Below are positions 6,099 to 53,858 of a stretch of DNA of 64,000 nt, in pieces. Where the stretch lies: the IMG/VR virus record IMGVR_UViG_3300011339_000278, positions 6,743-70,742 of that record, one strand, 5' to 3'. This DNA is from a virus (taxonomy: Duplodnaviria > Caudoviricetes). The translations under genes were made by a program, and so were the position numbers. Position 1 is the stretch's first letter; every line of letters starts with the position of its first letter. The notes below the pieces were generated by a model, which saw only the letters and a list, made by a program, of their open reading frames with translations, was not told the origin of the DNA and searched no databases.

Positions 6099-7043
6099 TT
6101 ACAGTTGTCTAAGTTCTTCACCAGTAGGTGAAACGATTTTGTGTTCCCATGCTGTCTTAGGCAATCTACCCATTGGTAGGTCAATCCAGTCAAACGCTTC
6201 TTTAGTTTCTGCAAGCATTGTTCTGCGGAAGTGCCTACTCACCGTGCCCTGTACCTGATCCTGCCATTCGCGTGGCAGTCTTGGTTCACTTGTACCCGCA
6301 TTCTCATCACGCCAGTGGTAGTAAAAATTACTACGCACCCAATGTGTTTTAAGTAGATACATAATAAACGCCGCATCTACATAGTGTTTCTTGTCGACCA
6401 CCTCCTTCAATGTCTTGTCGTTGAACTCCGCACCGTAGAACTTGTTGTATTGGTTGTACAAGTCTCTGATGACATCCAACGCCGCCTTATCGTTCATCGC
6501 CTTGATAAACATCGGATAGACATCTAAGAATTCTTTGTACTGCTTCATGTGCTCGTTGGATCTTTTGCGATTCAGGGTAGGCTGAACAACTGTGAACTGA
6601 GTCAGGGGCTTCTTTGTTCCTATATCAAACCGCAGTCCTGTGAAGATCGGATACTCACCATCACCAGTCGACATGACTGCACCGCCCTTGTCTTTCACTT
6701 GATGTATGTACACGCCAAGCAATTCAGATAAGAGAGTGTTCTCGCCTTGATGCAATCCATTCTCAGTAGTGAACTCAAACGAATTGTCGGGGCGCACAAC
6801 GCCTAATGGTTTCTTATCTCTCCACCATCCTTCGGTTACACCACCTATTTGAATCTTGTCAGAGAACTCGCGGTGCAGATACCAAATACTAAATGAACCA
6901 TCCTCCAACGCACGGAAGTGCCGAGCTGAATACTCCCTGTATCCGAGCGGGTAGGCATTGCCTGAGTTGCGATAGGGCTTGCTGTTCTTGACTTGGTTAG
7001 CCAAGGACTCGTAACTGATTTTGTTGATGTCATAAAAACTCAT
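6099..7043 (-). CDS. Hypothetical protein
   Basis: 314-aa ORF directly downstream of the vWA gene, with a GGAG RBS. Confidence 0.8.
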   Translation of the reverse strand: MSFYDINKISYESLANQVKNSKPYRNSGNAYPLGYREYSARHFRALEDGSFSIWYLHREFSDKIQIGGVTEGWWRDKKPLGVVRPDNSFEFTTENGLHQGENTLLSELLGVYIHQVKDKGGAVMSTGDGEYPIFTGLRFDIGTKKPLTQFTVVQPTLNRKRSNEHMKQYKEFLDVYPMFIKAMNDKAALDVIRDLYNQYNKFYGAEFNDKTLKEVVDKKHYVDAAFIMYLLKTHWVRSNFYYHWRDENAGTSEPRLPREWQDQVQGTVSRHFRRTMLAETKEAFDWIDLPMGRLPKTAWEHKIVSPTGEELRQL

Positions 7044-17795: not shown

Positions 17796-20312
17796 ATGGC
17801 TACGAATATGGTCCCCTCATTGTCGCAAGCTCCACTGGGCTTGAGTGCGTTGGAAGACATGGGCGACATGCCCGCGATTGAGATTGAGATCGAAGATCCC
17901 GAGGGTGTTCGCATCGGGCTGGACGGCATGGAGATTGACTTGATGCCCGACGAAGAGGGCGAAGACTTTGATGCCAACCTTGCAGAGGAAATGGACTCGG
18001 GTGAGTTGCAGAAAGTTGCAAGCGACATCATTGAGATGGTAGATGCGGACATTAACTCACGCAAAGAGTGGGTTGAGATGTATGTCAAGGGCTTAGATGT
18101 TTTGGGAATGAAGTATGAAGAGCGTACTGAACCGTGGCTCGGCGCTTGCGGTGTTTTCTCAACGGTACTCACAGAAGCTGCTGTACGGTTCCAGAGCGAG
18201 ACTATCATTGAAACGTTCCCTGCTCAGGGTCCGGTCAAAACCGAGATCGTCGGTGCAATTGATAAACTTAAAGAAGAGGCGGCTGAGCGTGTAAGAGACG
18301 ACATGAACTATCAGCTCACCGAGGTGATGACTGAGTATCGCCCTGAGCATGAGCGCATGTTGTATAACTTAGGACTAGCGGGCGCGGCGTTCAAGAAAGT
18401 TTATTTTGACCCGTCACTTGATCGTCAAGTGGCGATGTTTATTCCAGCTGAAGACATCATCATTCCGTACGGTGCATCGAGCGCGGCGACATCTGAGCGT
18501 CTGACTCACGTCATGCGTAAGACCAAGAATGAGATGAAGAAGTTGCAGGTTGCGGGCTTCTACGTTGATGAAGATTTGGGTGAACCTGTCACGATCCACA
18601 CAGATGTGGAGAAGAAGAAAGCCGAGGATCAGGGTTACTCACTGACAGACGATGATCGCTATCAAGTCTTGGAAGTGCACATCGACTACGACCTGCCCGG
18701 TTATGAAGATGAAGATGGTATCGCTCTGCCGTATATCATCACAATTGAGCGTGGCACTAACGCTGTGTTGGCCATCCGCCGTAACTGGAACGAGGACGAC
18801 AAGAGAAAACTCAAGCGTCAACACTTTGTGCAGTACACATACGTCCCCGGCTTCGGTGCTTATGGTCTAGGTTTGATCCACTTGATCGGTGGCTACGCCC
18901 GTGCTGGTACATCCCTCATCAGACAGCTCGTTGACGCAGGTACGCTGTCTAACTTGCCCGGTGGCTTGAAGACCAGAGGGTTGAGAATTAAGGGTGACGA
19001 TACGCCGATCAACCCCGGTGAGTTCCGTGATGTAGATGTGCCGTCAGGTACAGTGCGTGACAACATCATGGCGCTGCCGTACAAAGAGCCAAGTCAAGTT
19101 TTGGCGGGGTTGTTAGATCGCATCACTGAAGAAGGTCGTCGTCTGGGTTCAATCGCTGATATGAACATCAGCGACATGAGCGCTAACGCACCGGTGGGTA
19201 CAACGCTGGCGCTGCTTGAGAGACAGCTCAAAACAATGAGTGCGGTTCAAGCCCGCGTGCACTACAGCATGAAGCAAGAGTTTCAGCTCCTGCGTGACAT
19301 TATTCGTGATCACACTCCACCAGAGTACAGCTTCGATCCAGTTGAAGGTGATAGAAAAGCAAAGCAAGCTGACTACGACATAGTGTCAGTGATTCCGGTG
19401 AGTGATCCCAACAGTGCAACGATGGCTCAGCGCATCATGCAGTACCAAGCTGTGATTCAGTTGGCACAAGGCGCACCACAGATCTATGACTTGCCGCAGT
19501 TGCACAGGCAGATGATCGAGGTGCTGGGTATCAAGAACGCAGATAAGTTAGTCCCAGTAGACGACGACCAGACTCCGCGTGATCCTGTGTCTGAGAACAT
19601 GTCGTTCCTCACTGGTAAGCCTACGAAAGCGTTTATTTATCAGGACCACGATGCACACATTGCTGTGCATACCAGCATGATGCAGGACCCGATGATCATG
19701 GGTCAGATTGGTCAGAGTCCCATGGCTCAGCAGATGCAGGGCGCGATCATGGCTCACGTTGCTGAACACTTAGCGTTCCAGTACCGTCAGAAAGTTCAAG
19801 AGCAGTTGGGTGCTACGTTGCCAGCTCCTGATGCGCAGTTGGATGAACAGGTTGAAGTGCAGGTGTCCAAACTTGTGGCTCAAGCTGCGACGCAACTTCT
19901 TGCGATGGATAAAGCCAAGGCCGCTCAACAGCAAGCGATGCAGCAGGCTCAAGATCCGATCATTCAGATGCAACAGGCTGAACTTCAGATCAAGAAGCAA
20001 GAAGCTGAAATCAAGGCGCTCAAAGTCAAAGGTGACTTGCAGCTCAAAGCCGAAGAGTTGTCACTCAAGGCGCAGGAAAGTGCAGCTAGAGCTGGAGAAG
20101 ATCCAGCCATGGCAGCGATGCGGTTGCAACAAGAGATTGCTCAAGCCCAAGAGTTACACGGCTTAGAGATGGCGGCCAAACAGATGGAGTTGCAGCAGGC
20201 TCAAGCCCAGCAGCAACAAGCCATGATGCAGCAGCAACAGATGCACCAGCAAAAGATGGCTCACGGCGGGCAAGTCCATGAGCAGAGGTTAATGCAGAGT
20301 AATAAGGAGTAA
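17796..20312 (+). CDS. Portal protein (P22-like) with Gln-rich coiled-coil tail
   Basis: 838 aa after TerL; AFKKVY, YGLGLIHL and DAGTLSNLPGG blocks; long Q-rich C-terminus. Confidence 0.9.
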   Translation: MATNMVPSLSQAPLGLSALEDMGDMPAIEIEIEDPEGVRIGLDGMEIDLMPDEEGEDFDANLAEEMDSGELQKVASDIIEMVDADINSRKEWVEMYVKGLDVLGMKYEERTEPWLGACGVFSTVLTEAAVRFQSETIIETFPAQGPVKTEIVGAIDKLKEEAAERVRDDMNYQLTEVMTEYRPEHERMLYNLGLAGAAFKKVYFDPSLDRQVAMFIPAEDIIIPYGASSAATSERLTHVMRKTKNEMKKLQVAGFYVDEDLGEPVTIHTDVEKKKAEDQGYSLTDDDRYQVLEVHIDYDLPGYEDEDGIALPYIITIERGTNAVLAIRRNWNEDDKRKLKRQHFVQYTYVPGFGAYGLGLIHLIGGYARAGTSLIRQLVDAGTLSNLPGGLKTRGLRIKGDDTPINPGEFRDVDVPSGTVRDNIMALPYKEPSQVLAGLLDRITEEGRRLGSIADMNISDMSANAPVGTTLALLERQLKTMSAVQARVHYSMKQEFQLLRDIIRDHTPPEYSFDPVEGDRKAKQADYDIVSVIPVSDPNSATMAQRIMQYQAVIQLAQGAPQIYDLPQLHRQMIEVLGIKNADKLVPVDDDQTPRDPVSENMSFLTGKPTKAFIYQDHDAHIAVHTSMMQDPMIMGQIGQSPMAQQMQGAIMAHVAEHLAFQYRQKVQEQLGATLPAPDAQLDEQVEVQVSKLVAQAATQLLAMDKAKAAQQQAMQQAQDPIIQMQQAELQIKKQEAEIKALKVKGDLQLKAEELSLKAQESAARAGEDPAMAAMRLQQEIAQAQELHGLEMAAKQMELQQAQAQQQQAMMQQQQMHQQKMAHGGQVHEQRLMQSNKE

Positions 20313-40496: not shown

Positions 40497-42539
40497 ATGG
40501 CTATTCGTGAACGCCCAAACAACTTTTTCATGGACTTTGAAGACACTGGCTTTGGCGGTAATGCCATGGAGCAGAACGAAGCGTTGGCAAATATTTTTTA
40601 TCCTCCCGCTCCTACGCCTGTAGCTGCCCCTGTTCCAGTGCCAACACCCACTCCAACACCTGCTTCCGTACAAGAGCCTGATTATTACGCGCAACAGTTT
40701 GCTCCTGATATATTTGCGCCTGTAGCTGCGCCTATCGAAAGAGCTCCTATAGCGCCTCCCGTTGAGATTCCCGTTGAACCTCCTCCTGAACTTTTAGCAC
40801 CCCCTGCTGCGCCTCAACCAGCGCCCGTTGGAAAATCCGCAGAAGCGCCTGCGCCCAAAACTGACTATACAGAAGCATTAACAAAACAAATTCTTGGTCA
40901 AGGTCTAACCAGTAAATGGTCTGGTGAAGGGTATGGCTCGGCTGAAAAGAATGCGGCTGATATGGCTAGAATTCTTGCGGGCATTGGTATCACAGACATT
41001 AAACAATTTGGCCCCATAACTAGAGAAGTAAAAAAGGTTGTTGGGTACGAGGATTGGGGTGATCCAATTTATCAGACTGTAACTGAGCAAACCTTTGGCA
41101 ATAAAGAAACGGGGCAAGCCGTTCCCAACACCTATACAGAGCGCCAGACAGGTAATTTTTTTGGTGGAACTTATGCGGGTAAGGGAAACACTGGCTATGG
41201 CGTCCAGTTTGATGCTCAGGGAAACCCAATTTTCTATACGCAAGGCGCGTCTAGTAGTGATATAGGGAAAATTGCGCCTTTGCTAACACTTGCATCGTTT
41301 GTTCCCGGCCTGCAACCTTTTGCTATGGCTGCTAACGCCGCTATTGCCGCGAAGCAGGGCAACCCACTTGGTGTCATTACTAACCTTGCGGGCATGGGTG
41401 GCCTTGCGGGTGTTAGCGGTATGTCTGATGTTGCCAATGCAGCTAGGTTTGCGGGTGCTGTAAAGAGCGGAGATCCGCTTGCCATGCTATTTTCTGGCGC
41501 TAATTTGGCAGGTGTAAGCGACATTGGTGGCGTTAATCTTAGAGATGCTTCTAAAACTATTGGCGCAATTAAAGCTATCGAGAGTGGCGACCCTTTGGCT
41601 CTGTTACCGTATTTGAGCAGCATAGCGCCAAAAGATAGCGGTTTGAGTCCATCAACAGAACCTCCATCGACAGAACCACCTCTTGACCCAGAAGAGCAAG
41701 CACAACTCATAGAAAATAGACTTAACACAGCTATTAGTCGGTCACAAACTCCTATTGACGAAGAAGACGCAAATACGCAAAGAGCAATCAGTGAACTTGA
41801 AAGTCTTTACGGGCCATCGTCAACTACAAGATCTTTTACTGCTGAACCGCAAATAGAAGAAGCTGATGACTTCTTAAAGTCTATCGGTATCAACACACTA
41901 GATAAGCCATCGGATAGTGGCCTGAGCAACGAAGGAATACTTAACCTAATTAACGCTGACAACGAGATGGTTATCACCGGCAAACGCGATACCGTTGGTC
42001 GTGGTATGTCCGAAGACATTCTCAGGAATCTTGAAAATGCAGGTGAACTCCCCTTACCAACTCCAGAGAAAAAGCTTGAAGAGCTAGTGATAAAGGGAGG
42101 CCGTCCTAAAGAAGAAATGACGGTTCAACAAGAACCTACAGGCGTAGACGAATTTATTAAATCACTGCAACCATACATAGCGCCTGCGCCAGCAGAAAAA
42201 CTTCCTGAGCTAGTGATGACAGGCAACCGAGACAAAACACAGGAGCATGTGTTTGACCCAACGTTTGGTGGTACTTTGCCATTACCGGAGCCAGTCACCG
42301 CAACTCCCCCTGCTGCTACACCTAAAGCACCGGCCAAGGCTCCAACAACCTCCGCACGCCCATCAAGTTCATCCAGTATGGATATGATGGGTTTATTAGC
42401 ACTTTTGTATGGACAGCAAGCTCCAGCGCAACAAGCCCCTATGCAAGACCCTTACGCCCATATAAAATTGATGGAAGATTTGTTCGGGTCAGAGATTGAT
42501 TTAACACCCGCCGGTGAAGACACCGCACGAAGGAAATGA
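40497..42539 (+). CDS. Putative DNA-ejection/internal virion protein
   Basis: Pro-rich linkers, hydrophobic Ala/Gly segment, three E-L/M-V-x-x-G-x-R motifs; position before the giant gene. Confidence 0.65.
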   Translation: MAIRERPNNFFMDFEDTGFGGNAMEQNEALANIFYPPAPTPVAAPVPVPTPTPTPASVQEPDYYAQQFAPDIFAPVAAPIERAPIAPPVEIPVEPPPELLAPPAAPQPAPVGKSAEAPAPKTDYTEALTKQILGQGLTSKWSGEGYGSAEKNAADMARILAGIGITDIKQFGPITREVKKVVGYEDWGDPIYQTVTEQTFGNKETGQAVPNTYTERQTGNFFGGTYAGKGNTGYGVQFDAQGNPIFYTQGASSSDIGKIAPLLTLASFVPGLQPFAMAANAAIAAKQGNPLGVITNLAGMGGLAGVSGMSDVANAARFAGAVKSGDPLAMLFSGANLAGVSDIGGVNLRDASKTIGAIKAIESGDPLALLPYLSSIAPKDSGLSPSTEPPSTEPPLDPEEQAQLIENRLNTAISRSQTPIDEEDANTQRAISELESLYGPSSTTRSFTAEPQIEEADDFLKSIGINTLDKPSDSGLSNEGILNLINADNEMVITGKRDTVGRGMSEDILRNLENAGELPLPTPEKKLEELVIKGGRPKEEMTVQQEPTGVDEFIKSLQPYIAPAPAEKLPELVMTGNRDKTQEHVFDPTFGGTLPLPEPVTATPPAATPKAPAKAPTTSARPSSSSSMDMMGLLALLYGQQAPAQQAPMQDPYAHIKLMEDLFGSEIDLTPAGEDTARRK

Positions 42540-42540
42540 T

Positions 42541-45003
42541 ATGACTTTGGATGATTTAATTAATTTAAATACGTTGCCTAGTTCCGGTGGGGATGATGAA
42601 TCTGTGTTTGACCCAACGTATGGTGGCACGCTTCCCCCAGTTATGGGTGGCGGGGGTGAATCTGTATTTGACCCAACTTATGGTGGAACTCTTCCCGGCA
42701 CTGCTGATGCAGGCGGGCTAAGCGGTATCCTAAGATCTTTATTTGGTGACGGCTCGGGCGGGCTAGACCTCCTTAAACTTGGCGCTTTGGGTGGTGGCGT
42801 AGCGGGTCTGCTTGGCGGAAACAAGTCTTCATCTACACCTTCTGGATACCAAGGCGGTATTCCCCGTTACACCGCAACACGAAACATGGTGAACGCTCCT
42901 ACTGCCGGTCGTCGCCCCGGTGCTGGCGGCACTCGTTACGGTGGTGATGTATCTTTTATGCCTCAAGGTTCAGCTTCCGTAGGTGGCGGGCTAGCTTCTT
43001 TGGTAGGCAGAGGTCTTACTGGCGGTAGTCCCGCAACAGACACAGATGGGTCTTCAGTTGCGTTAAGAGACATGATGAAAGCTGTAAACACGCCCCGAAC
43101 ACCGCGTGAATATGATTACCCTGAACCAGTCCGAGGGAACGAAATGCGTTTGCGCAACCCAGCGGGGCCAGTATTAAACGAAGAATCTTATGCAAAACCC
43201 TACGCAGAAGGTGGCATGACTGAAGGTAGATATTTACAAGGTCAAACTGACGGTATGGCTGATGAAATCCCCGCACAAATTGGTGACGATCAACCTGCCG
43301 CACTAAGCCACGGTGAGTTTGTTATTCCTGCGGATGTTGTATCTCACTTGGGTAACGGCAATTCTGATGCAGGTGCACAAAAGTTGTACAGCATGATGGA
43401 CAAAATCCGTGAGGCTCGTACTGGCACAAAAAAGCAAGGTAAAGAGATCAACCCCGATAGTTTTATGCCCGGCGGTTTAGCTAAAGCTTATGCCAATGGC
43501 GGCGCTGTTCAGCGCTTCCAAACTGGTGGTATTTCTGGTGTTGGTACTGCCGCTAACGCAGGTGTGACTGGCACTGAATCCAACCTGTCTAACTGGGCTG
43601 GTGAGTACGTAACAGACATGCTGGGCAAAGGTCGGGCGCTGTCTGAAATGCCGTATCAAGAATACGGTGGCCCTCTAACGGCTGGTGCTTCACCTCTACA
43701 ACAGCAAGCGTTTGGCACTGCGGCTAATTTATCTGTTCCCGGAAGTATTGGCACTGCCGCTCAAACCGCTGGAGATATTGCCAGTAAAGCCCAAGGCATG
43801 ACGTACACACCTTCTGGCGCTCCACAGTACAACCAACTGAGTGCTGGTAATGTGTCGTCTACGTTCCAAGCGCCTGCGCCTTACCAAGCGGCTACATTCG
43901 GCAATCAGTTCCAAGCGCCTACACAAACAGCTGCAACAAACTTTACCAACCAATTTAAAGCGCCTGATCAGTATAAAAATACTGCCTTTACATCTGGCAC
44001 ATTTGGTGGTGAGCAAGCCCAGCAGTACATGAACCCGTACTTGCAGCAGTCACTTAGCCCACAGTTAGCTGAAGCACGTCGTCAGGCTGATATTACCGAG
44101 CAGCAAAACAAAGCGGCTATGACTAAGGCCGGTGCGTTTGGTGGTGGTAGATCGGCTATTTTGACTGCTGAAGGTCAGCGTAACCTTGGTACTAACTTAG
44201 CCAATATCACAGGCAAGGGTTATGACACAGCGTTCCAAAACGCTATGAGTCAGTACAACGCTGACCAAGCCCGTAACATGCAAGCCCAGCAAGCTTCTGA
44301 GCAATCTAAGCAGTTTGGTGCTGGACAGTCTATGACTGCCGCTCAGATGATGGCCCAGTACGGTATGTCTGCACAGCAAGCTCAAGAGGCGGCTCGTCAG
44401 TTCAACCAACAACAAGCTATGACAGGTGCTCAGTCTGCGGCTCAGTATGGTCTTGCAGGACAGCAAGCTGGTGAAGCCTCCCGTCAATTTGGTGCTAACC
44501 TTGGTCTTCAAGGTGCTACAACTGCTGGCGCACAAGGTCTACAGGCGGCTTTGGCTAATCAACAAGCTGGACTTACTGCTGGTCAAGGCAACATCAACGC
44601 CGCTATGGAAGCGGCTAGACAACAAGAACAGTCACGTCAGTTTGGCGCACAGCAAGGTATGGCAGGACTTAACACAGCTTTGTCAGCGGCTCAAACTCAG
44701 GGCAACTTGGGTATCTCTGGCGCTGATCTTGGACTGCGTAACCTGCAACAGCAACTTGCCGCTGGCCAACAAGAACGTGGTATTGAAGCCGAAGGTATCG
44801 CAGCTGATAAAGCAGCGTTTGAAGAAGCTAGGGCAAACCCCTACAAGATGGTTCAGTTCCAACAATCGTTGCTTAGCGGTTTACCATTGGCTGCGCAGAA
44901 CATTAACACCGCTCAACCTAGTACGTTTGCAAATGTGATGACGGGCGCGGGTAGCGTAGCTAGCTTGTTAAATTCTTTGGGTCTTGGCCCTAAAAAACCA
45001 TAA
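42541..45003 (+). CDS. Putative DNA-ejection/pilot protein
   Basis: Gly-rich N-terminus, DGMAD.IPA...LSHGEFV domain, Gln/Ala-rich RQFGA helical repeats; likely ATG at 42541. Confidence 0.7.
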   Translation: MTLDDLINLNTLPSSGGDDESVFDPTYGGTLPPVMGGGGESVFDPTYGGTLPGTADAGGLSGILRSLFGDGSGGLDLLKLGALGGGVAGLLGGNKSSSTPSGYQGGIPRYTATRNMVNAPTAGRRPGAGGTRYGGDVSFMPQGSASVGGGLASLVGRGLTGGSPATDTDGSSVALRDMMKAVNTPRTPREYDYPEPVRGNEMRLRNPAGPVLNEESYAKPYAEGGMTEGRYLQGQTDGMADEIPAQIGDDQPAALSHGEFVIPADVVSHLGNGNSDAGAQKLYSMMDKIREARTGTKKQGKEINPDSFMPGGLAKAYANGGAVQRFQTGGISGVGTAANAGVTGTESNLSNWAGEYVTDMLGKGRALSEMPYQEYGGPLTAGASPLQQQAFGTAANLSVPGSIGTAAQTAGDIASKAQGMTYTPSGAPQYNQLSAGNVSSTFQAPAPYQAATFGNQFQAPTQTAATNFTNQFKAPDQYKNTAFTSGTFGGEQAQQYMNPYLQQSLSPQLAEARRQADITEQQNKAAMTKAGAFGGGRSAILTAEGQRNLGTNLANITGKGYDTAFQNAMSQYNADQARNMQAQQASEQSKQFGAGQSMTAAQMMAQYGMSAQQAQEAARQFNQQQAMTGAQSAAQYGLAGQQAGEASRQFGANLGLQGATTAGAQGLQAALANQQAGLTAGQGNINAAMEAARQQEQSRQFGAQQGMAGLNTALSAAQTQGNLGISGADLGLRNLQQQLAAGQQERGIEAEGIAADKAAFEEARANPYKMVQFQQSLLSGLPLAAQNINTAQPSTFANVMTGAGSVASLLNSLGLGPKKP

Positions 45004-45012
45004 GGGATTGAT

Positions 45013-46833
45013 ATGAACGGCGGAATAGACCAACTTGTAGATACATATAAGGGTAATCCCCAACCCTTGCAGGCTAAGGTGCAGAAGGCACAACAGGGTC
45101 AGCCACCGGGTGAAATCCCTCCTGACTTGGAAGAAGCCATGGCGCTTCAAAAGATCGCTGAGTTGCGTAACAGTGCACAAAGCCAACAAGCTATGCAAGC
45201 GGGCGGTGCTCAACAATCCGTTGTAGAAAAGCTACGTCAGATGTTAGGCGGTATGCAGCAACAAGCGCAGATGGCTCCCCAGATGGCCCAAGCTCCTCAA
45301 CAAGGTCAAATGCAAGGTCAGCCCGTTATGGCGGCGGGTGGTGGCAGTATCGACCAACTTATGTCTAACCTTGGCCAATATTACGCAGGGGGCGGCATTG
45401 TTGCGTTTAACGGTAAAGACCAAAGCAAGGTTCCTACTGAAGAAGAACTTGAAGCCCAACGCAAAGCCGACAGAGAAAAAATTGATGCCCTTGCTAGAAC
45501 ATTGGGACAAACCGGTGGTGAGTACGCTGGTAAAAGTATGGCCGCCCTTGCAGATATTACGAGTTTGATTCCTCGTGGTTTAGCTGGCGCAGCTGATACG
45601 GCACTCATTCGTCCACTGCGTGCATTGGGCGCAAAGGTTGACTATTTAAGCCCCGCGTTAACCCCCGGCAACCAAAGTTCGGACACTATGACTCCGTTCT
45701 ATGATCGGTATATTCGCGCTAAAGAAGGGACTGCTCAAGATAAACCAACTCCGGCTTCAGATGTTCCCCTAGATTCAAAATCAGTACGTGGTGGTCGCAC
45801 CACAATGGCTAACGATCCACGTTTAGGTAAACTTGATGTAACTCCTACAGGTCCCGGCGCTCCAGCCGCGCCTGCTCCAAAACCTCCCGCTGCGCCTCGC
45901 CCACCCACTGCAAACGTTAATGCGCCAGCTGCTCCAGCCGCGCCAGCTAAGCCCGCTACTGAACCTACAAATCCTCTGGAAGCAGCGCTTCAAAAAAGCA
46001 TTATGGAAGCTCTAGCTAAAGACCCAGAAGCTATTCGTAAGAAAGCTATGGAGCAAAACAAAGAATTTATGGGCTTGGATGCGCTGTTAAAACCTGCGCA
46101 GGACCGCGCCTCTGCCCGCGAAGCAAGGATTAAAGAAATCCAAGGTAGCCGTCAACCGCTATGGATTGATGCGTTAATGTCTGCCGGTAAGCCTACCAAA
46201 GGCGGCATTGCAGGTGTTCTTCAGAATATGGCTGTTGGTGCTATATCTGGTAAACAGAACTACGACGCTGAAGACCTTAAGTTTCTTGATGAGCTTAACA
46301 AACTTAACTCCGAGATTGACAAGGCCAGAATTGAAGGTCGTTACAAAGACGTGGCGGCTGGCAAAGAAGCCGTTAAAGATCTTATTGCTGAACAGCGTTC
46401 AGCAGAGCAGTCTGGTACAAGTTTGCTTAATACAAAAGAGAACGCTAGAAGCCGTGAACAGTCTGCAAATATTGCAGCTCAAGCAAGGCGCGATGCTTCA
46501 GCCGCCGCTGCCGCTGCTTCCGCTCAGTCTGCCGCAGCGCAATTAGAAGAAAAAAGATTGCGTCGTCAACAGCAGCAACAACAATTCTTGGCGCAAGAAG
46601 AACGTAAGTGGCAAGATACTTTAAGCAAGAATCCTGACTATAAAAAGTTGGTAGACCAACGCTCCATGCAGGAACGCTTGCTGTATATGTCAACTGATCC
46701 TAAGATACAAGAAAAAGCTCAAGCAGCGGTTGATGCACTAAACGAAAGAATTGCAAAAATGTTGCCCACTGCGGGCGGCGGAACTGTTAATATTCCTCCT
46801 CCACCAAAAGGTGCTGTTACAAGGGTTGGATAA
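45013..46833 (+). CDS. Putative DNA-ejection protein
   Basis: 606 aa helical, Gln/Ala/Pro-rich. Confidence 0.65.
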   Translation: MNGGIDQLVDTYKGNPQPLQAKVQKAQQGQPPGEIPPDLEEAMALQKIAELRNSAQSQQAMQAGGAQQSVVEKLRQMLGGMQQQAQMAPQMAQAPQQGQMQGQPVMAAGGGSIDQLMSNLGQYYAGGGIVAFNGKDQSKVPTEEELEAQRKADREKIDALARTLGQTGGEYAGKSMAALADITSLIPRGLAGAADTALIRPLRALGAKVDYLSPALTPGNQSSDTMTPFYDRYIRAKEGTAQDKPTPASDVPLDSKSVRGGRTTMANDPRLGKLDVTPTGPGAPAAPAPKPPAAPRPPTANVNAPAAPAAPAKPATEPTNPLEAALQKSIMEALAKDPEAIRKKAMEQNKEFMGLDALLKPAQDRASAREARIKEIQGSRQPLWIDALMSAGKPTKGGIAGVLQNMAVGAISGKQNYDAEDLKFLDELNKLNSEIDKARIEGRYKDVAAGKEAVKDLIAEQRSAEQSGTSLLNTKENARSREQSANIAAQARRDASAAAAAASAQSAAAQLEEKRLRRQQQQQQFLAQEERKWQDTLSKNPDYKKLVDQRSMQERLLYMSTDPKIQEKAQAAVDALNERIAKMLPTAGGGTVNIPPPPKGAVTRVG

Positions 46834-49800
46834 TGGCTAAATTTGCTGTAAACGTTGAAGGCGCTAAATACGAAGTTGAAGCGCCGGATGAGAATACAGC
46901 GTGGCAGTGGGCATACACAACCCACATGCAGGGGCAAAGGCCCGCTTCTAAACCTGCCGCGCCTAAGATTCCAGAACGTACTTTTGGTGAAGCATTTACC
47001 GATATTGGTGCTGCTGGTCTTGGCGGTATTGGCAGTCTTGTTCAACTTCCCGGCCAACTCTATGGCCTAGCCACAGGCGACTTCTCTAAGACGGGCGCAT
47101 TGGGCGCTGGTCAAGAACTTGAAGAATATGCAAAAAGCCTAAAGTCGCAGTCACTGCTGGCTCGTGAAAAGGCTCGCTCTGAGAAGGTCGCGCAAGCAGA
47201 AAAAGAAGGTCAACTTGCCGCATTTAAAGCAGCTTTTGGTGAGACTGTTTCTGATCCAGCGCTGTTGACATCATTTTTAGCTGAGCAACTTCCACAGATT
47301 ATCCCTGCCGCTATCACAGGTGGCGGTACAGCCGCGCTTACTTCTGGTAGTGTTCTAGCCAAAGAGCTTGCTAAAGGCACGGCAAAAGAAGCCGCTGAAG
47401 CCGCCGCTAAGAAAGCCGCTATTAAATCTGGTACAACTGCCGCTGTTCAGACTGGTGCAGTGCAACAAGGCGCAGACATTGGCGCTGGCTCATACGACGA
47501 GATCTATGCAGAGTTGTCTAAGAGAATGCCCGCTGAACAAGCTGCGGCTGAGACAATTAATTTAGCCCGTGCTGCTGGTGTTACAGGTTATGGCTTATCT
47601 GTTTTAGCTAATCGTTTCTTGCCCGGTGGCAGTGCGCTTGAACGTGTACTTGCTGGTGAGAAAACAGGCAAGGGTATTATACGTGGCGGTGTTGCTGGTG
47701 CGCTTAAAGAACTTCCAAGCGAGAACGTGGAAGAAGTTGGTGGTCGCCTTGCGCAAAACATTGCGGCCCGCACCGCTGGCCTTGATCGTGACCTAACTTC
47801 AGGCTTAGGCGAAACTGCGGCTATGGCATCAATTGGTGCGGCTGGCATGGGCGGGGTAACTGGCATCGTTGGTGGCCGTCAATCAGATCAACAAATACGT
47901 GATGAAGTATTAAGACAAGAAGCGCTTAAGCAACGCGAAGAGGAACAGCAGAAGCAAGAAGCAGAAACCGCCATCACAGAAGAAGTTAAGACTGAACCTG
48001 AGAAAAAAGGTAAGCCTTCAATTGTTGGCACTGAGTTTGAAGAAGTTGCGCCCGGCACTGTGATTGAAACGCCACCAGTAGACATAGCTGAAGTACAGCG
48101 CGATCCAAAGATCATGGCGATGCAAGCTGAGTATGACAAGCGCGATGCTGAGATCAAAGAGTTAGAGTCGCGTGGCATGAGCCTCACAAAAGGTGAGCAA
48201 AACAAACTTACTAATAAGCGCAATTCAAACGCAAAACTTAAAGTGAGTATTGACGATGCGTTATCCACGATCAGCCCGAAGGGAGCGGAAGATGCTACAG
48301 GAACTCTCGGTGAAACAGCTGGAGCGAGCACTGCGTTATCTACACAACCAGCCGTCATCGTTCCCCCCACCGCAGGAGCTGGAGAAGCTCAACGAAATGG
48401 AGTGGTTTCTACTGGAGCGGATGTTACAGGCACTGCTGAAGGAAAAGGAACAAAGCCCGCTCCAATAGCCACAGAAGCTCAAGTACGCGCGCTTACAGAC
48501 AAAGACTTAAATGACAAGCTAACCGACCAAATGATGTTTGGTGGTGATGATGTTGAATATAAACTTTTAAAAGACGAACAACTACGTCGTAAAACTACTC
48601 AATCAGCAGGAGCACCACTTGGCACTCAAACCCCTCAAGCCCAGCAAACAGAAGCGCAAGGACAAAAACCACCCGCAGCCCCAACAGTAAAGACTGCCAT
48701 CCAAGAAGATGAAGACTTAATCAATAAACTCTTTGGGGATGATGGTCTTCCTTCAGCCGGTTCAGCGCGTCGTACTAAAGCACAAATTGAAAAAGACAAA
48801 CAGGATGCCGCGCAACTTGCCGAACTTGGTCAGCGTTATGGTTTAACGCAACGTGATGGTGAATTACAGCAAGACTTTGGTCAGCGTATCCGTAAAGCTT
48901 ACGCGTTTGAAAAAGAACGCCAAGGCAAACCACTCTCTGCTATGGGTGAGCAGGACATTGCCGGTCAAGAATTAAAAGAAGAACAAGGCTACTTCCCATC
49001 ACAAGAAGAACGTGACTTGTATGAAGAAACTCGTCAAGACTACAACTCTAAGCTTGAAAAAGGCGAAGAGCCGCTACCCGCTTATAAAGAACTAGGCAAT
49101 GATGAACGCCTTGTTTATTTCCGCGACAACATTAAACGAAATGATCAAACAGAACACGATAGAGCGGTTAAAGATTTAGCTGACTATCGCGAGTCACAAA
49201 AAAGCGAAGTTGAAACATACCAAGTACGTGACAAAAAAACGAATGAACCTCTGTTTAATGAAGACGGAACTCCATTAATGGTTAAAGCTCCGTTTGTGGG
49301 CGAGACCAAAGCGCGTAGAAGTTACAACCAACAACGTAGCGCATTCAGTCAAAAGACTGGGCTTTCGTATGAGTTTCCTATTTGGGGCGATTTGTCTACA
49401 GAAGCTCGTAAAGCCTACGCAGCTTTTAACAAAAAAGATTCTCCTCTTGAGTTAGACATGGCGTTCCGTGCCGTAAAGAAACAAATTCAAAAAGATCTAT
49501 CGGAACAAACTTCGCGTGAAGGTTTGCAAGCCGCGGAAAGCCGTGCAACACAAGAAATGCTTGCCGCTGGTGAACGTGCGCGTAAATCACAACCTGCTGG
49601 TAAAGGGCAGGTGCTGCCGCTTGATATTCTGAAGAAGCTTGCGCGGGGTGACATTAAATCTGTACTGGAGTATTTGAGTACACAAGGGCATGGTCTGAAG
49701 CTTAAGCGCGGCTACGATCTAGTACCGTTTACAGGAGTTAATGGTAAGACGGTTTTGCGGCGTGGCGTTGTTAATATTCGTGATTCAGTTGCAATGGGCG

Positions 49801-52800
49801 TTTTCCGCACATTGGCTGGTACTTTATCCAACATTGCCGACCTCAAAGTAAATGTTGTGTTCGATAAGAACATGATACATGAGCAAATTGCCAAGTACGA
49901 CGCCAACACAAATACTTTGTATGTTGGTCCATACGGTTTGGATGAAGCTACGATCTTGCACGAGCTAACCCATGCCGCTACTGTAAAGATCATTCATCAG
50001 TTCTTCACTGATAAAACAAAACTTGACCCGCGTGTAGCGGCGTCTGTTGAACGCCTGATTGATATTGCCAGCGCCGCCAAAGCCAAGCTCGGCAGTAAGT
50101 ACCCCAATGCGTTTGACAACCTGTACGAGTTCATTGCTTATGCGATGACTGATATGGAGTTCCAGAACGAACTAGCTGGTATTCAGATTCCTCGTCTAGC
50201 GTACGCTACGGCAAAGACGCAAGAGCAGTCTGAAGAATTGCAGCTTGAGCGTGAGACCGGTGTGCGCGAAGGCTCGTATGACAGCATGTTTGATAACCTG
50301 TGGGATTACTTCACAGGCACTCTTGCGTTCATGTACAAGTTGTTCCGTCCAGAACAAACGCGCCAAAAGATTTTAATGCCAACTGAGAAGACCGGCACTC
50401 CTCAGAAAGCTACCAAAGAAAAGACTATTGCACCAAGAGAGCAAAAAGAAAAACGAGAGTTGGATCTCGCCGAAAAAGAAGCGCTTGCGCCTGAGTCTTT
50501 GTTTGACAGTCCTGAAGAAGCTGATGTAGCTGAAATTCCTCCGCTGAAGGGTGAATTGGTCAACGAGCGTGGCGTAACAAACCTACGCCGTGAAATTCTA
50601 CGTTCCCCCGGTTATAAAGGTAACTTGCTGTTAGAAGCTGCCGCAGCTTTCCAAAATATTCTTGCCGCACCTGAAGGTGGTATTGAGCGCCTTGCCGGTA
50701 AAGAAACAATTGGTGAAGCAGCTGAGTTGTCTGCAAAAGCCAAAGAAGCCGCTGGCACTACACAAAAACCAACCACACAAAAAGCTCCAGCTAAAGTTGA
50801 CGTTACTACAGAAGAAGCGATCAAACGTAATGAACTGCCTGAGACAAGCGGTATTAATGCGTTGCGCAAACTGTTCACAACACGTCAAGGTGGTATGAAC
50901 TTGGTGACTAAGTTTCAAAATGCTCGTTATGCGATCAAGAGCTGGGAAGATGGTTTGACCCGTGCCGGTAAGATTATTTATAGCGGAAGCAAACTAAACA
51001 ACATCTATACGCAGATTGCCTTAGCCGCTTCTCGCGCCAAAGACTTGTACCTGACCAGAGTCAATACTCCTGCAAGTGATATGCAGAGTGCCATCGGTGC
51101 GTATGCCGAGGCTTCTGGTTTGACTTCTAAAGAAGCGACCGAGCGTTTACATGTATACCTGATGGGTCTGCACGAGGGTGAACGTCGTGATGTGAAGTAC
51201 ATGTTGAACGTGCCACTGAGCAACGACAAGATTTTGAAGATTGGTAATGAAATCTTAAGTCCCGCTGAGTTCCGTGAGCGCATCATGGATGAAGTGTTGT
51301 CTGGCACATTAAACAAGACTCAGATTGAAACTGCCCGCACTGCATTAGATAATGTTGTGGCTAAGTACAAAGACCCAACCGGTTCAAGCCCAAATGGTTA
51401 TAAATCTGTTGATCGTAACAACGAAGAATACAACGTCATCGGTGGTTACACACCCAAGTCCATTCAGAACTTCCGCGACTCTTATGAAAATGATCCTAAC
51501 AAAAAGGAAGTAGACAAAGTTATTGCCGCTATGCGCAAGTTGCAAGATGCAACAAGAGAGTTAAACAAAGAGGCTAACTACTGGTCAGCGCCCGTGCAAA
51601 GTATTGTGGACTTTTACGGCTGGAAAAACTATGTGCCTTTTGCCGGTAAAGAAAAGTACACCAACGATGCTGATGCCGCGCTTGATTTTAACAGCAAACG
51701 CAATGGTCGTGAACTGCAAGAAGGTCAGAACTCTTTTGAAGGTCGTGAAACTGACTCCGATAACTCTATTGTTCAATCGTTGACTGATGCAACGCGTGCC
51801 GCTATGCGTGCTGGTCGTAGGGATGTGACGCTTGCAATTAAAAACGCTGTGGCTAAAGATAAAGATGGCAATCAATTACTCAAAGGTCGTATCTTCAAAA
51901 CAATTCCATTTGCAGATCGTTACAAAGACCTGAACATTGGCGAAGAGAAGAAAGAAAACGTCATTTTCCATTACAACAAGGATGGCAGTATTGATGTGAT
52001 TGAGATTTTTGATAAGGCGCAACGTAACGCTATTCGCCGCACGTACGAGCAGTCTCAACCAATCATTGATATGCTGAACCACATCACTAGCGGTGTGGGT
52101 CAAATGCACACTCGTTACAACATTGCGTTTGCGCCAGTTAACTTCTTCCGTGATGCTCTGACTAACGCATACTCAATTGGTGTTGAGATGGGTCCAAAAG
52201 CTTCGGCGCAATACCTTGGTGCTATTGCTACAAATGTAGCAAGCGGTGGCTTGTTCCGTGCCGCCAAAGTTGCCGCGCTGTATGAGGCAGGTAAGTTTGA
52301 CCAAATCAGAGCGATGGCTAAGAAGAATGATTATGTACGCGACATGCTTGAGTTCATTGAGCAGGGCGGCAAAGTGTCATATCTTGCTGGTCTTTCTTCT
52401 AAGGGTCAGTTTAAAGAATTGCAGAAGTCGCTTGACCGTACCGGCATCTTGAAGACTAAGGACCAGATCGACAAGTTTGTTGACATCTACACTGATATGT
52501 TTGAATTGGCAAGCCGCACTGCGGCGTATCGTGTTGCCAAGTCACAGGCATTGGCAGAAAATCTTTCCCCTGCTGATGCACAAGTCAAAGCCGCTGGTTA
52601 CGCTAAAGGTCTTGCCAACTTTGAACAGGTTGGTGAGTGGGGCCGTGCCGCTGGTGCGGCGTTCATGTTCTTCCGTCCAGCCGCTACTGGCGCTGTCAGG
52701 GCTATTGAAACATTAGGCCCAATGCTACGTGATCCACAAGAAGCTTTAAAAGAACTACCTGAGTACATTCAAAAAGACAAAGTGGCTAGCGCTGAGTTCT

Positions 52801-53858
52801 TGAAAAAATACAACGAGCAAAAGAAGGCCGCTACTGCAATGACCTTGGGCTTGCTTGGCATGGGCAGTGCAATCTATCTGATGTCTATGGCATTGTCTGA
52901 CGATGATGATCTAGGTCGCAACCGCTCCGCTATTGATGATCCAAACCGCTGGTCACGCTATGCCCGCTTCCATATTCCCGGAATGGACACACCAATCCAA
53001 ATTCCTTGGGGTTTTGGCCTTGGCGCATTTGCATCCGCTGGCGCACAGGTTACAGCGTTGGCTACAGGCAACTCATCCGTTAAGAATGCTCTGAGCAATA
53101 TCGTTGTGACAGGCTTGGATTCGTTCTTGCCGCTGCCGGTCTCGCGCATTAGTCCGATAGACAACTTCCCAGCATGGGCGATGGATTCTGCAACGCCTTC
53201 CGTTGCGCGTCCGTTCCTTGAGTGGGTGATGAACGTTGATGGTCTGGGTCGTGAGATCTATAACAACCGTCAGTCACGCTACGGCGATGCTTACACAGGT
53301 GGCGACAACATCCCTGAGTTGTATAAGTCTGCCGCACGTACTTTGGCTGAAATCACAGACGGCAAGGTGGACTGGAGTCCAAACACAATGTACTTCTTCG
53401 CCAATAACTACGGCGATGGACTGATGCGTTTGGCTCAAACTGGATATAACTACGGTCTGCTGGCGGCTGGTGAAAAGGCATTCAATCCTAAGACTGATAC
53501 CGTGCTGTTTGATAGCTTCTTTGGCGCACCGTCAAACTACGATGCACGGCAGTTCTCAGAGGTTGAGAAACAGATTTTGTCTAAACAACAAAAACTCAAC
53601 ATGTTTAAGGATTCAAACCCAGAAGCGTATGCCCGATACGTTGAGAAGAATCCAATGGACGAATACATAGTTGAGCACTACAACAAAGTAATCAACCAAG
53701 ACTTGAAAAAGTTGCGGGAAGAGGCAAACATTTACCGCCGTATGCCGGGCCTAACTCCCAAAGAACGCACGGAAGCTGTTAAGAATGTTGTCAAGTTCCA
53801 GAACTTAGTCAAGCGTGGGATCATAGAAGACTTTGAAATGATGGGTGTTGAACCCTAA
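46833..53858 (+). CDS. Giant internal virion/ejection protein (large polyvalent-type) with HExxH module and LPD38-like C-terminus
   Basis: 2341 aa; Gly/Ala-rich N-terminus; HELTH at 49959-49973; C-terminal membrane-like region. Confidence 0.8.
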   Translation: MAKFAVNVEGAKYEVEAPDENTAWQWAYTTHMQGQRPASKPAAPKIPERTFGEAFTDIGAAGLGGIGSLVQLPGQLYGLATGDFSKTGALGAGQELEEYAKSLKSQSLLAREKARSEKVAQAEKEGQLAAFKAAFGETVSDPALLTSFLAEQLPQIIPAAITGGGTAALTSGSVLAKELAKGTAKEAAEAAAKKAAIKSGTTAAVQTGAVQQGADIGAGSYDEIYAELSKRMPAEQAAAETINLARAAGVTGYGLSVLANRFLPGGSALERVLAGEKTGKGIIRGGVAGALKELPSENVEEVGGRLAQNIAARTAGLDRDLTSGLGETAAMASIGAAGMGGVTGIVGGRQSDQQIRDEVLRQEALKQREEEQQKQEAETAITEEVKTEPEKKGKPSIVGTEFEEVAPGTVIETPPVDIAEVQRDPKIMAMQAEYDKRDAEIKELESRGMSLTKGEQNKLTNKRNSNAKLKVSIDDALSTISPKGAEDATGTLGETAGASTALSTQPAVIVPPTAGAGEAQRNGVVSTGADVTGTAEGKGTKPAPIATEAQVRALTDKDLNDKLTDQMMFGGDDVEYKLLKDEQLRRKTTQSAGAPLGTQTPQAQQTEAQGQKPPAAPTVKTAIQEDEDLINKLFGDDGLPSAGSARRTKAQIEKDKQDAAQLAELGQRYGLTQRDGELQQDFGQRIRKAYAFEKERQGKPLSAMGEQDIAGQELKEEQGYFPSQEERDLYEETRQDYNSKLEKGEEPLPAYKELGNDERLVYFRDNIKRNDQTEHDRAVKDLADYRESQKSEVETYQVRDKKTNEPLFNEDGTPLMVKAPFVGETKARRSYNQQRSAFSQKTGLSYEFPIWGDLSTEARKAYAAFNKKDSPLELDMAFRAVKKQIQKDLSEQTSREGLQAAESRATQEMLAAGERARKSQPAGKGQVLPLDILKKLARGDIKSVLEYLSTQGHGLKLKRGYDLVPFTGVNGKTVLRRGVVNIRDSVAMGVFRTLAGTLSNIADLKVNVVFDKNMIHEQIAKYDANTNTLYVGPYGLDEATILHELTHAATVKIIHQFFTDKTKLDPRVAASVERLIDIASAAKAKLGSKYPNAFDNLYEFIAYAMTDMEFQNELAGIQIPRLAYATAKTQEQSEELQLERETGVREGSYDSMFDNLWDYFTGTLAFMYKLFRPEQTRQKILMPTEKTGTPQKATKEKTIAPREQKEKRELDLAEKEALAPESLFDSPEEADVAEIPPLKGELVNERGVTNLRREILRSPGYKGNLLLEAAAAFQNILAAPEGGIERLAGKETIGEAAELSAKAKEAAGTTQKPTTQKAPAKVDVTTEEAIKRNELPETSGINALRKLFTTRQGGMNLVTKFQNARYAIKSWEDGLTRAGKIIYSGSKLNNIYTQIALAASRAKDLYLTRVNTPASDMQSAIGAYAEASGLTSKEATERLHVYLMGLHEGERRDVKYMLNVPLSNDKILKIGNEILSPAEFRERIMDEVLSGTLNKTQIETARTALDNVVAKYKDPTGSSPNGYKSVDRNNEEYNVIGGYTPKSIQNFRDSYENDPNKKEVDKVIAAMRKLQDATRELNKEANYWSAPVQSIVDFYGWKNYVPFAGKEKYTNDADAALDFNSKRNGRELQEGQNSFEGRETDSDNSIVQSLTDATRAAMRAGRRDVTLAIKNAVAKDKDGNQLLKGRIFKTIPFADRYKDLNIGEEKKENVIFHYNKDGSIDVIEIFDKAQRNAIRRTYEQSQPIIDMLNHITSGVGQMHTRYNIAFAPVNFFRDALTNAYSIGVEMGPKASAQYLGAIATNVASGGLFRAAKVAALYEAGKFDQIRAMAKKNDYVRDMLEFIEQGGKVSYLAGLSSKGQFKELQKSLDRTGILKTKDQIDKFVDIYTDMFELASRTAAYRVAKSQALAENLSPADAQVKAAGYAKGLANFEQVGEWGRAAGAAFMFFRPAATGAVRAIETLGPMLRDPQEALKELPEYIQKDKVASAEFLKKYNEQKKAATAMTLGLLGMGSAIYLMSMALSDDDDLGRNRSAIDDPNRWSRYARFHIPGMDTPIQIPWGFGLGAFASAGAQVTALATGNSSVKNALSNIVVTGLDSFLPLPVSRISPIDNFPAWAMDSATPSVARPFLEWVMNVDGLGREIYNNRQSRYGDAYTGGDNIPELYKSAARTLAEITDGKVDWSPNTMYFFANNYGDGLMRLAQTGYNYGLLAAGEKAFNPKTDTVLFDSFFGAPSNYDARQFSEVEKQILSKQQKLNMFKDSNPEAYARYVEKNPMDEYIVEHYNKVINQDLKKLREEANIYRRMPGLTPKERTEAVKNVVKFQNLVKRGIIEDFEMMGVEP
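48292..48468 (+). CDS. Candidate overprinted 58-aa gene in +1 frame of giant gene
   Basis: AAGGGAG SD 6-7 nt before ATG; amphipathic helical product; host frame is low-complexity here. Confidence 0.5.
   Translation: MLQELSVKQLERALRYLHNQPSSFPPPQELEKLNEMEWFLLERMLQALLKEKEQSPLQ

Follow-up and report, generated by a model that had tools for sequence, protein, structure and literature searches.

Evidence for a small overprinted gene inside the giant, putatively polyvalent virion-protein gene of uncultured aquatic phages

Organization of the locus

The current study concerns a stretch of 64,000 nucleotides (nt) of phage DNA (Duplodnaviria; Caudoviricetes; positions 6,743 to 70,742 of IMG/VR record IMGVR_UViG_3300011339_000278), referred to here as the window and amounting to most of a 70.7-kb viral contig, and in particular a small open reading frame (ORF) that lies wholly inside a giant gene of the same strand and is read in its +1 frame (Table 1). 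The small ORF starts with the ATG at 48292-48294 and ends with the TAG at 48466-48468. An earlier, sequence-only reading of this DNA had proposed a 58-residue +1-frame gene preceded by a Shine-Dalgarno (SD) box, and its coordinates, SD box and translation match ours exactly. Its central claim, namely that this is an overprinted gene with an SD box and ATG of its own, is strongly supported by the comparison of relatives described below. We consider it highly probable, at roughly 0.9, that positions 48292-48468 constitute a real, independently initiated gene for a protein, overprinted on the giant gene in its +1 frame.

Table 1. Positions of the small ORF, its signals and the host-gene features in the window
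Feature	Position	Strand	Remarks
Small overprinted gene (candidate)	48292..48468	+	58 codons + TAG; +1 frame relative to host gene
Shine-Dalgarno box AAGGGAG of small ORF	48279..48285	+	6 nt ahead of ATG
Host gene	46833..53858	+	2341-aa giant protein (P0002), putative late/virion polyvalent protein; last gene of the structural module
Upstream in-frame ATG, alternative start	48256..48258	+	would yield a 70-aa form
Host-frame reading of overlap	48291..48470	+	P0002 aa 487-546; Gly/Ala/Thr/Ser/Pro-rich linker
Zincin-like metallopeptidase domain of host protein	49839..50201	+	aa about 1003-1123; HELTH at aa 1043
LPD38 domain of host protein	52938..53465	+	Pfam PF18857, aa 2036-2211, 68.8 bits (cut-off 27), E 8.6e-19

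The small ORF appears to sit on an inter-domain linker of the giant gene. A Gly/Ala/Thr linker had already been described for the host frame over these bases, a description that we can confirm, and the host frame has this featureless character because it is the -1 reading of the Leu/Glu/Gln-rich codons of a helical protein. The upstream in-frame ATG is a by-product of the host motif D-D-A-L and occurs in many close relatives; it is missing, or cut off by stops, in five others (L058, L059, L062, L066 and L068). To judge from these alignments, it is probably not a functional start, and its selection by gene callers accounts for the start of some 69-aa database entries.

Occurrence among related phages

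When examining related loci, it is evident that the small ORF recurs together with the giant gene. The host N-terminus, used as query, retrieved 23 loci, 8 of which align through the overlap region, and in these the +1 peptide is almost unchanged and the host-frame residues vary freely. The peptide itself retrieved 52 loci at 50-98% identity, in each of which it is encoded in the +1 frame of a giant ORF, and a six-frame profile search added diverged copies from 11 further relatives, once again in the +1 frame of the host ORF. In total, the +1 frame of the giant ORF contains the small ORF, open and with the same ends, in 68/68 other matching loci (52 viral contigs, 11 profile-found loci, 4 metagenome contigs, and 1 contig of a Polaromonas metagenome-assembled genome [MAG]). 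A profile search of 1.84 billion cluster representatives yielded 145 clusters (50% identity) at E <= 1e-3, nearly all of them 50-110 aa long and ending exactly at the C-terminus of the family.

Several apparent exceptions to the nested arrangement were considered. Four divergent members are called as separate genes, and all four proved to be embedded once the frames were read; P0098, P0144 and P0116, among the calls checked, had at first seemed to represent a stand-alone form. No stand-alone copy was found. An apparent fusion to a helix-turn-helix (HTH) domain (P0138, HTH_Tnp_1_2 plus the small domain) derives from a chimeric 526-nt contig; over its first 92 residues it matches, at 100% identity, a family of 225-aa proteins in which the tail is missing. 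Lastly, the giant ORF of locus L078 seems to be split into two frames. Comparison with L077 traces this to a 2-nt deletion at L078:1440-1470, just upstream of the small-ORF ATG, which represents either an error of sequencing or a frameshift variant that exists in nature.

The sequence-only reading had suggested a similar +1 peptide in related phage giant proteins. This proved correct for uncultured relatives, whereas every cultured phage searched was negative: neither blastn of the region nor tblastn of the peptide produced a match among cultured phages. The nearest cultured relatives are podoviruses of aquatic bacteria (Planktothrix phage Pag-Yong1, Pelagibacter phage HTVC027P and others), with portal proteins about 43% identical. 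DNA of the window is present in river, freshwater and drinking-water metagenomes of several studies. Among 185,579 species genomes, the sole match is a phage-like contig binned with the Polaromonas MAG (L081), in which the small ORF lies inside a giant ORF of at least 1745 aa; this contig is a weak hint of freshwater Burkholderiales as hosts. The available sequences suggest that the small gene belongs to the core-like gene set of a freshwater phage lineage that is uncultured and has genomes of roughly 60-70 kb.

Selection on the two reading frames

Codon-level comparisons were performed with 40 distinct nucleotide versions of the overlap (780 pairs). The small ORF starts with ATG in 39/40 and with GTG in the remaining one, with even the divergent clades starting with ATG, while its stop codon occupies a single shared alignment column. 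A GGAG or GGA-purine core stands at a constant spacing from the start in nearly all 40, even though the surrounding host-frame residues differ. Presumably, as this pattern of conservation suggests, ribosomes would initiate internally on the late mRNA, using the SD box and ATG of the small ORF itself. The RNA around the start shows no excess of structure over shuffled sequences (z = +1.35), and no internal sigma-70-like promoter was found upstream on the + strand.

The same region bears upon another explanation raised by the sequence-only reading, according to which the 58 residues would be the C-terminus of a +1 frameshift isoform, fused to the N-terminal ~486 aa of the giant protein. Two observations point in this direction: some lineages have 40-80 open +1 codons ahead of the ATG, and a 266-aa metagenome protein, P0070, runs from a host-frame ART-PolyVal domain into the latter half of the small ORF. 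However, +1 stops lie only 1-5 codons before the ATG in L066, L059, L068, L058, L062 and L064, the window has one at a distance of 15 codons, the conserved block starts exactly at the Met, and both ATG and SD box are kept where the host-frame residues differ. Furthermore, the change of frame in P0070 falls midway along the small ORF, as would result from an assembly indel, which is its most likely origin, and L078 contains just such an indel. A programmed frameshift is therefore rejected as a general mechanism and is very improbable as the source of the small protein.

It is the codon-level pattern of variation that most clearly separates the two frames. Small-peptide identity exceeds host-frame identity in 780/780 pairs, and the entropies of the first, second and third codon positions of the small frame (0.68, 0.38 and 1.06) follow the normal coding pattern, as a consequence of which the first codon position of the host frame is its most variable and the third its least. 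Counts that class each site by its effect in both frames give the small ORF a ratio of nonsynonymous to synonymous substitution rates (dN/dS) of 0.12 and 0.07, whereas the same counts give 1.66 and 0.92 for the host frame over the overlap. We also scanned 1900 aligned host codons with a 30-codon sliding window. The ratio of first- to third-position entropy reaches 3-30 only at aa 482-556 and is 0-0.85 nearly everywhere else, apart from a value of 1.07 in aa 587-616, one window which is rich in indels and poorly aligned; likewise, host third-position entropy falls to 0.02-0.13 over aa 482-556 only. Homologous genes could have revealed stops in the +1 frame and no conservation of peptide or SD box, a result that the sequence-only reading had named as damaging to its proposal. 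Instead, the frame is open, the peptide outconserves the host frame and the SD box is kept, and the two signs of selection it had suggested looking for are both present, with dN/dS far below 1 in the +1 frame and synonymous constraint in the host frame confined to the overlap. Between the window and the L034 group, the third positions of conserved codons are 54% identical and the peptide is 90% identical. Synonymous sites near saturation alongside a conserved peptide indicate old purifying selection rather than a recent transfer.

There might also be no second protein at all, in which case the segment would be a nucleic-acid element (an RNA structure or a packaging or recombination site) or would carry an antisense gene. 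The segment of 180 nt is certainly an island of nucleotide conservation where the homology of the mosaic giant gene begins or ends, and one antisense frame is stop-free in 26/40 sequences. Nevertheless, variability is strictly 3-nt periodic in the +1 sense frame, with third positions near saturation, and the RNAalifold consensus (-2.4 kcal/mol, 0 compensatory pairs) contains no conserved structure. The antisense frame able to mimic the periodicity is open in only 10/40, in the frame that is often open the third position coincides with the column of lowest variability, and start, SD box and stop are all conserved in the sense direction. An explanation of this kind is the least probable of those considered here.

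The host frame is open across the overlap in 40/40 sequences, compared to 2.9% expected if the small protein is fixed and its synonymous codons are random, from which it follows that both frames are maintained and that the dual coding is genuine. Selection acts on the amino acids of the small protein, and the host frame over the overlap evolves neutrally and is merely kept open. Among genomes with large terminase (TerL) proteins 53-83% identical and portal proteins 71-78% identical, the small protein is 60-90% identical. By these sequence comparisons, it is about as conserved within its phage lineage as portal and terminase. In a separate observation, the third sense frame is also stop-free over the entire small ORF, for 75-117 codons, in L056-L061 (e.g. 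L060:2921-3244). This amounts to 6/40 distinct sequences vs. about 4% expected; all six are related, and a single chance event may be responsible.

Certain observations count against the existence of the gene, or at least lend it nothing. In this single sequence the ORF is no more than chance would provide, and its length is unremarkable: the host gene holds longer +1 stop-free runs of 87, 87 and 81 codons, and the +1 frame was still open in 2081/20000 synonymous resamplings of the host segment. It is the comparison with relatives that lifts the ORF above chance, and the other long +1 runs serve as negative controls in that comparison, as none of them exhibits the inverted signal. Neither frame is well adapted in its codon usage (0.58 and 0.63 vs. 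0.76 for normal genes), which offers the reality of the gene no support either way and, for the same reason, singles out neither frame as the ancestral one. RNA-library contigs that cover the region neither distinguish the frames nor prove transcription.

The small protein

In a model computed with AlphaFold2 from a 20-sequence alignment (mean pLDDT 83.6), a helix at residues 7-19 is followed by a Pro-rich loop with a short turn and a helix at residues 35-54, in agreement with the helix, Pro linker and helix which the sequence-only reading had described. The product is predicted, with confidence in its compact fold, to be a small soluble acidic three-helix protein. Across 62 members of the family, the median pI is 4.8 and the net charge -5, with no membrane segment, and neither an N-terminal hydrophobic signal nor a lipobox is present. 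The sequence-only reading had offered a chaperone, an inhibitor or a superinfection-exclusion factor as candidate roles; for the last of these, at least in its classical membrane form, the soluble and acidic nature of the product and its lack of such a segment are unfavorable. The positions conserved throughout the family are mainly core hydrophobics together with Pro27 and Trp38, and the closer set has an invariant E-W-F-L-L-E/D-R-M. The C-terminal residue is His in 47/62, Gln in 14/62 and Asn in 1/62, preceded by Leu, Val or Ile. Cys is absent from 49/62 members and present in the other 13.

Neither the 62 nor the 20 members match any family in Pfam, PHROGs, NCBIfam, PADLOC or the PDB sequences, stray single matches aside. 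One such match, of a single member out of 62 to Pfam Phage_TAC_7 (E 6.6e-5), was treated as chance. A sequence profile search of the PDB returned only matches with E > 0.3, Foldseek found nothing in the PDB or BFVD at E <= 0.001, and the ESM Atlas held no usable match. The structural matches obtained were all homeodomain-like: the model does superpose on homeodomains (Z 5.0-6.7; rmsd about 2 Å over 50-56 residues; TM about 0.7; Foldseek E > 4), and it shares with homeodomain-like, Myb and SANT proteins a likeness of three helices, but for small models made of helices such scores fall short of significance. Where a recognition helix would be basic, helix 3 of the small protein is acidic and hydrophobic. 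Because of this non-basic helix and the median pI, DNA binding is unlikely. Searches of the literature, one with the exact motif and others on gene overlap within polyvalent proteins, brought up no earlier account of it. The family is an undescribed one, and was found only in uncultured aquatic phages.

The host gene and its surroundings

Within the structural module, the giant gene comes after genes for the large terminase and for tail and virion proteins, the portal gene at 17796-20312 and, at 40497-46833, the genes of three large unknown proteins. In its product, the zincin domain matches phrog_2206 ('virion RNA polymerase') at positions 2055-2205 (E 6.6e-15), and all of 24 homologues retain H-E-x-x-H together with a Glu further downstream. 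This sole PHROG match of the giant protein covers the zincin segment only and a polymerase domain was not detected; automatic annotation could mislabel the gene as a virion RNA polymerase (vRNAP). Iyer et al. 2017 (PMC5512222) describe the zincin peptidase as the hub domain of phage-type polyvalent proteins and LPD38 as specific to phages, and the MPTase class to which this domain belongs is recorded there both for N4-like vRNAP and for polyvalent proteins. With an MPTase, an LPD domain and a late/virion context all present, the host gene, to judge by its sequence, encodes a phage-type polyvalent virion protein. The sequence-only reading had labelled it a giant ejection protein, which is a reasonable inference from the same domains and from the position of the gene in the structural module.

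The N-terminal modules of the host protein are mosaic among relatives, and in P0070, for instance, the ART-PolyVal ADP-ribosyltransferase domain directly precedes the linker. At the very N-terminus, window positions 46833-46950 (P0002 aa 1-40) encode the motif Y-E-V-D/E-A-P-D-x-N-T-A-W-Q-W-A. The first 30-60 residues of the giant protein are 44-68% identical even where the rest is unrecognizable (L018-L023), and the motif may be a targeting or packaging signal.

We have also encountered several observations on the borders of the small ORF. Alignments of L001-L008 with the window show divergence or indels directly past the small-ORF stop, such that the homology of the mosaic gene begins or ends at the small-ORF borders. 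A metatranscriptome contig of a relative aligns over 48249-48474 only, and in several loci the overlap is among the few segments, or is the sole segment, that BLAST detects. This conserved island of ~180 nt may be a recombination junction for domain shuffling.

Possible functions of the small protein

Two proposals regarding function appear about equally likely, and neither is held with more than tentative confidence. According to the first, the small protein could be a late cofactor, made in cis with the giant protein, that aids its folding, processing or capsid loading via a conserved partner. We prefer this proposal due to the core-like conservation of the small gene, its position in the structural operon, and its retention while the flanking domains of the giant gene are swapped. 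The small gene is obligately linked to the giant gene, and it stays there even where those flanking domains have been exchanged.

Several findings nonetheless speak against a partnership with the giant protein. Firstly, the small protein is 88-98% identical despite a non-homologous host N-terminal domain and a peptidase domain only ~30% identical, and so it does not co-vary with either of these two domains. Secondly, in L014, an IMG/VR fragment of 15.3 kb, the N-terminal and peptidase domains of the giant gene are present and the small ORF is undetectable. Thirdly, the five nearest cultured genomes (Pag-Yong1, HTVC027P, DSL-LC04, CRP-902 and Caulobacter RW) gave no profile match in a search whose positive control worked. 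As a separate matter, the L014 gene has a different globular insert after its N-terminal domain. A complex prediction for the small protein with the host zincin peptidase domain, the only pair run, scored 0.00, which is not evidence either way.

The second proposal accepts the gene as real and supposes that its product is an autonomous accessory protein physically unconnected to the giant protein: a host-directed and possibly packaged factor, e.g. one that inhibits a conserved host protein or counters defence, for which the linker is merely a permissive site. All of the evidence for the reality of the gene applies equally here, as does the finding that the small protein does not co-vary with the N-terminal or peptidase domains that flank it, and the invariant, surface-adjacent E-W-F-L-L-E/D-R-M motif suggests a very conserved target. 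Accessory proteins with a role in host interaction are a frequent product of overprinted viral genes, and phage proteins that are small, acidic and helical are often inhibitors of host proteins, both of which favor an autonomous product. However, genes of the accessory or anti-defence type tend to be patchy in distribution and to evolve fast, whereas the small gene is conserved like portal and terminase and occurs in nearly every related genome examined. A late structural operon would also be an odd site for an early takeover factor, unless the protein is packaged, and no match was obtained in PADLOC or among anti-defence-like families.

Returning to the late cofactor, a more elaborate form of this idea is conceivable, albeit rather unlikely. 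The small gene might be a hidden core gene for morphogenesis or processing in this aquatic phage lineage, with an acidic three-helix product, its C-terminal His/Gln obligatory, that regulates the giant protein (e.g. by restraining the zincin peptidase or capsid loading until assembly), while the ~180-nt island doubles as a homologous anchor for the shuffling of effector domains. Were this the case, the small protein would represent a new functional class of phage protein, unannotated because it is nested in another gene.

Significance and comparison with known systems

Gene callers disallow nested genes on the same strand, and this family is consequently almost entirely unannotated. Its conservation, comparable to that of portal and terminase, marks the small gene as functionally important. 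It also constitutes an unusually clean case of dual coding in a large double-stranded DNA (dsDNA) phage, in which the embedded frame is the selected one and the giant gene reads through it as a spacer. A single T-to-C change at 48293 would convert the ATG to ACG, thereby removing the start of the small gene, and would leave the giant protein unaltered, since its codon there goes from GAT to the synonymous GAC; this provides a concrete experimental target, and scans of giant phage genes for synonymous constraint can uncover hidden core genes.

An out-of-frame embedded phage gene is already a known kind of gene, the textbook case being lambda Rz1 in Rz, even though the present family is itself undescribed. 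Rz1 (the o-spanin) is nested in the +1 frame of Rz (the i-spanin) with its own ribosome-binding site and start, and both frames are functional. The layout here is the same, with a small gene wholly inside a larger one and in its +1 frame. The resemblance does not extend to the products, as Rz1, a lipoprotein that is secreted and contains a lipobox Cys, partners Rz in lysis, whereas the small protein is acidic and helical, has no signal peptide and usually has no Cys. The host gene is likewise different, being a putative virion polyvalent-protein gene, and there is no sequence similarity.

With B in A, E in D and K of phiX174, the small gene shares out-of-frame dual coding and an inverted codon-position variability in the host frame. 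Overprinting of the phiX174 type occurs in tiny genomes limited by compaction, unlike the ~70-kb dsDNA phage studied here, in which no pressure on space is evident. A further difference from such cases is that the embedded frame bears nearly all of the constraint, the host frame being neutral over the overlap. The frameshift isoforms lambda G/GT and T7 10A/10B are similar in that a second product of a late structural gene is obtained via another frame. Theirs, however, is a frame that is open from a slippery site and has no internal start, while here stops abut a conserved SD box and ATG.

The closest parallel to the host gene is found among the phage-type polyvalent proteins (PMC5512222), which it resembles as a giant multidomain late/virion protein with a zincin-like peptidase and LPD38. 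The main text of that study does not contain the word 'overlapping' and describes no overlapping gene, and the small ORF is an addition in this respect. To the polyvalent proteins of phages, which are injected and carry multiple effectors, it would contribute a component that had previously escaped recognition.

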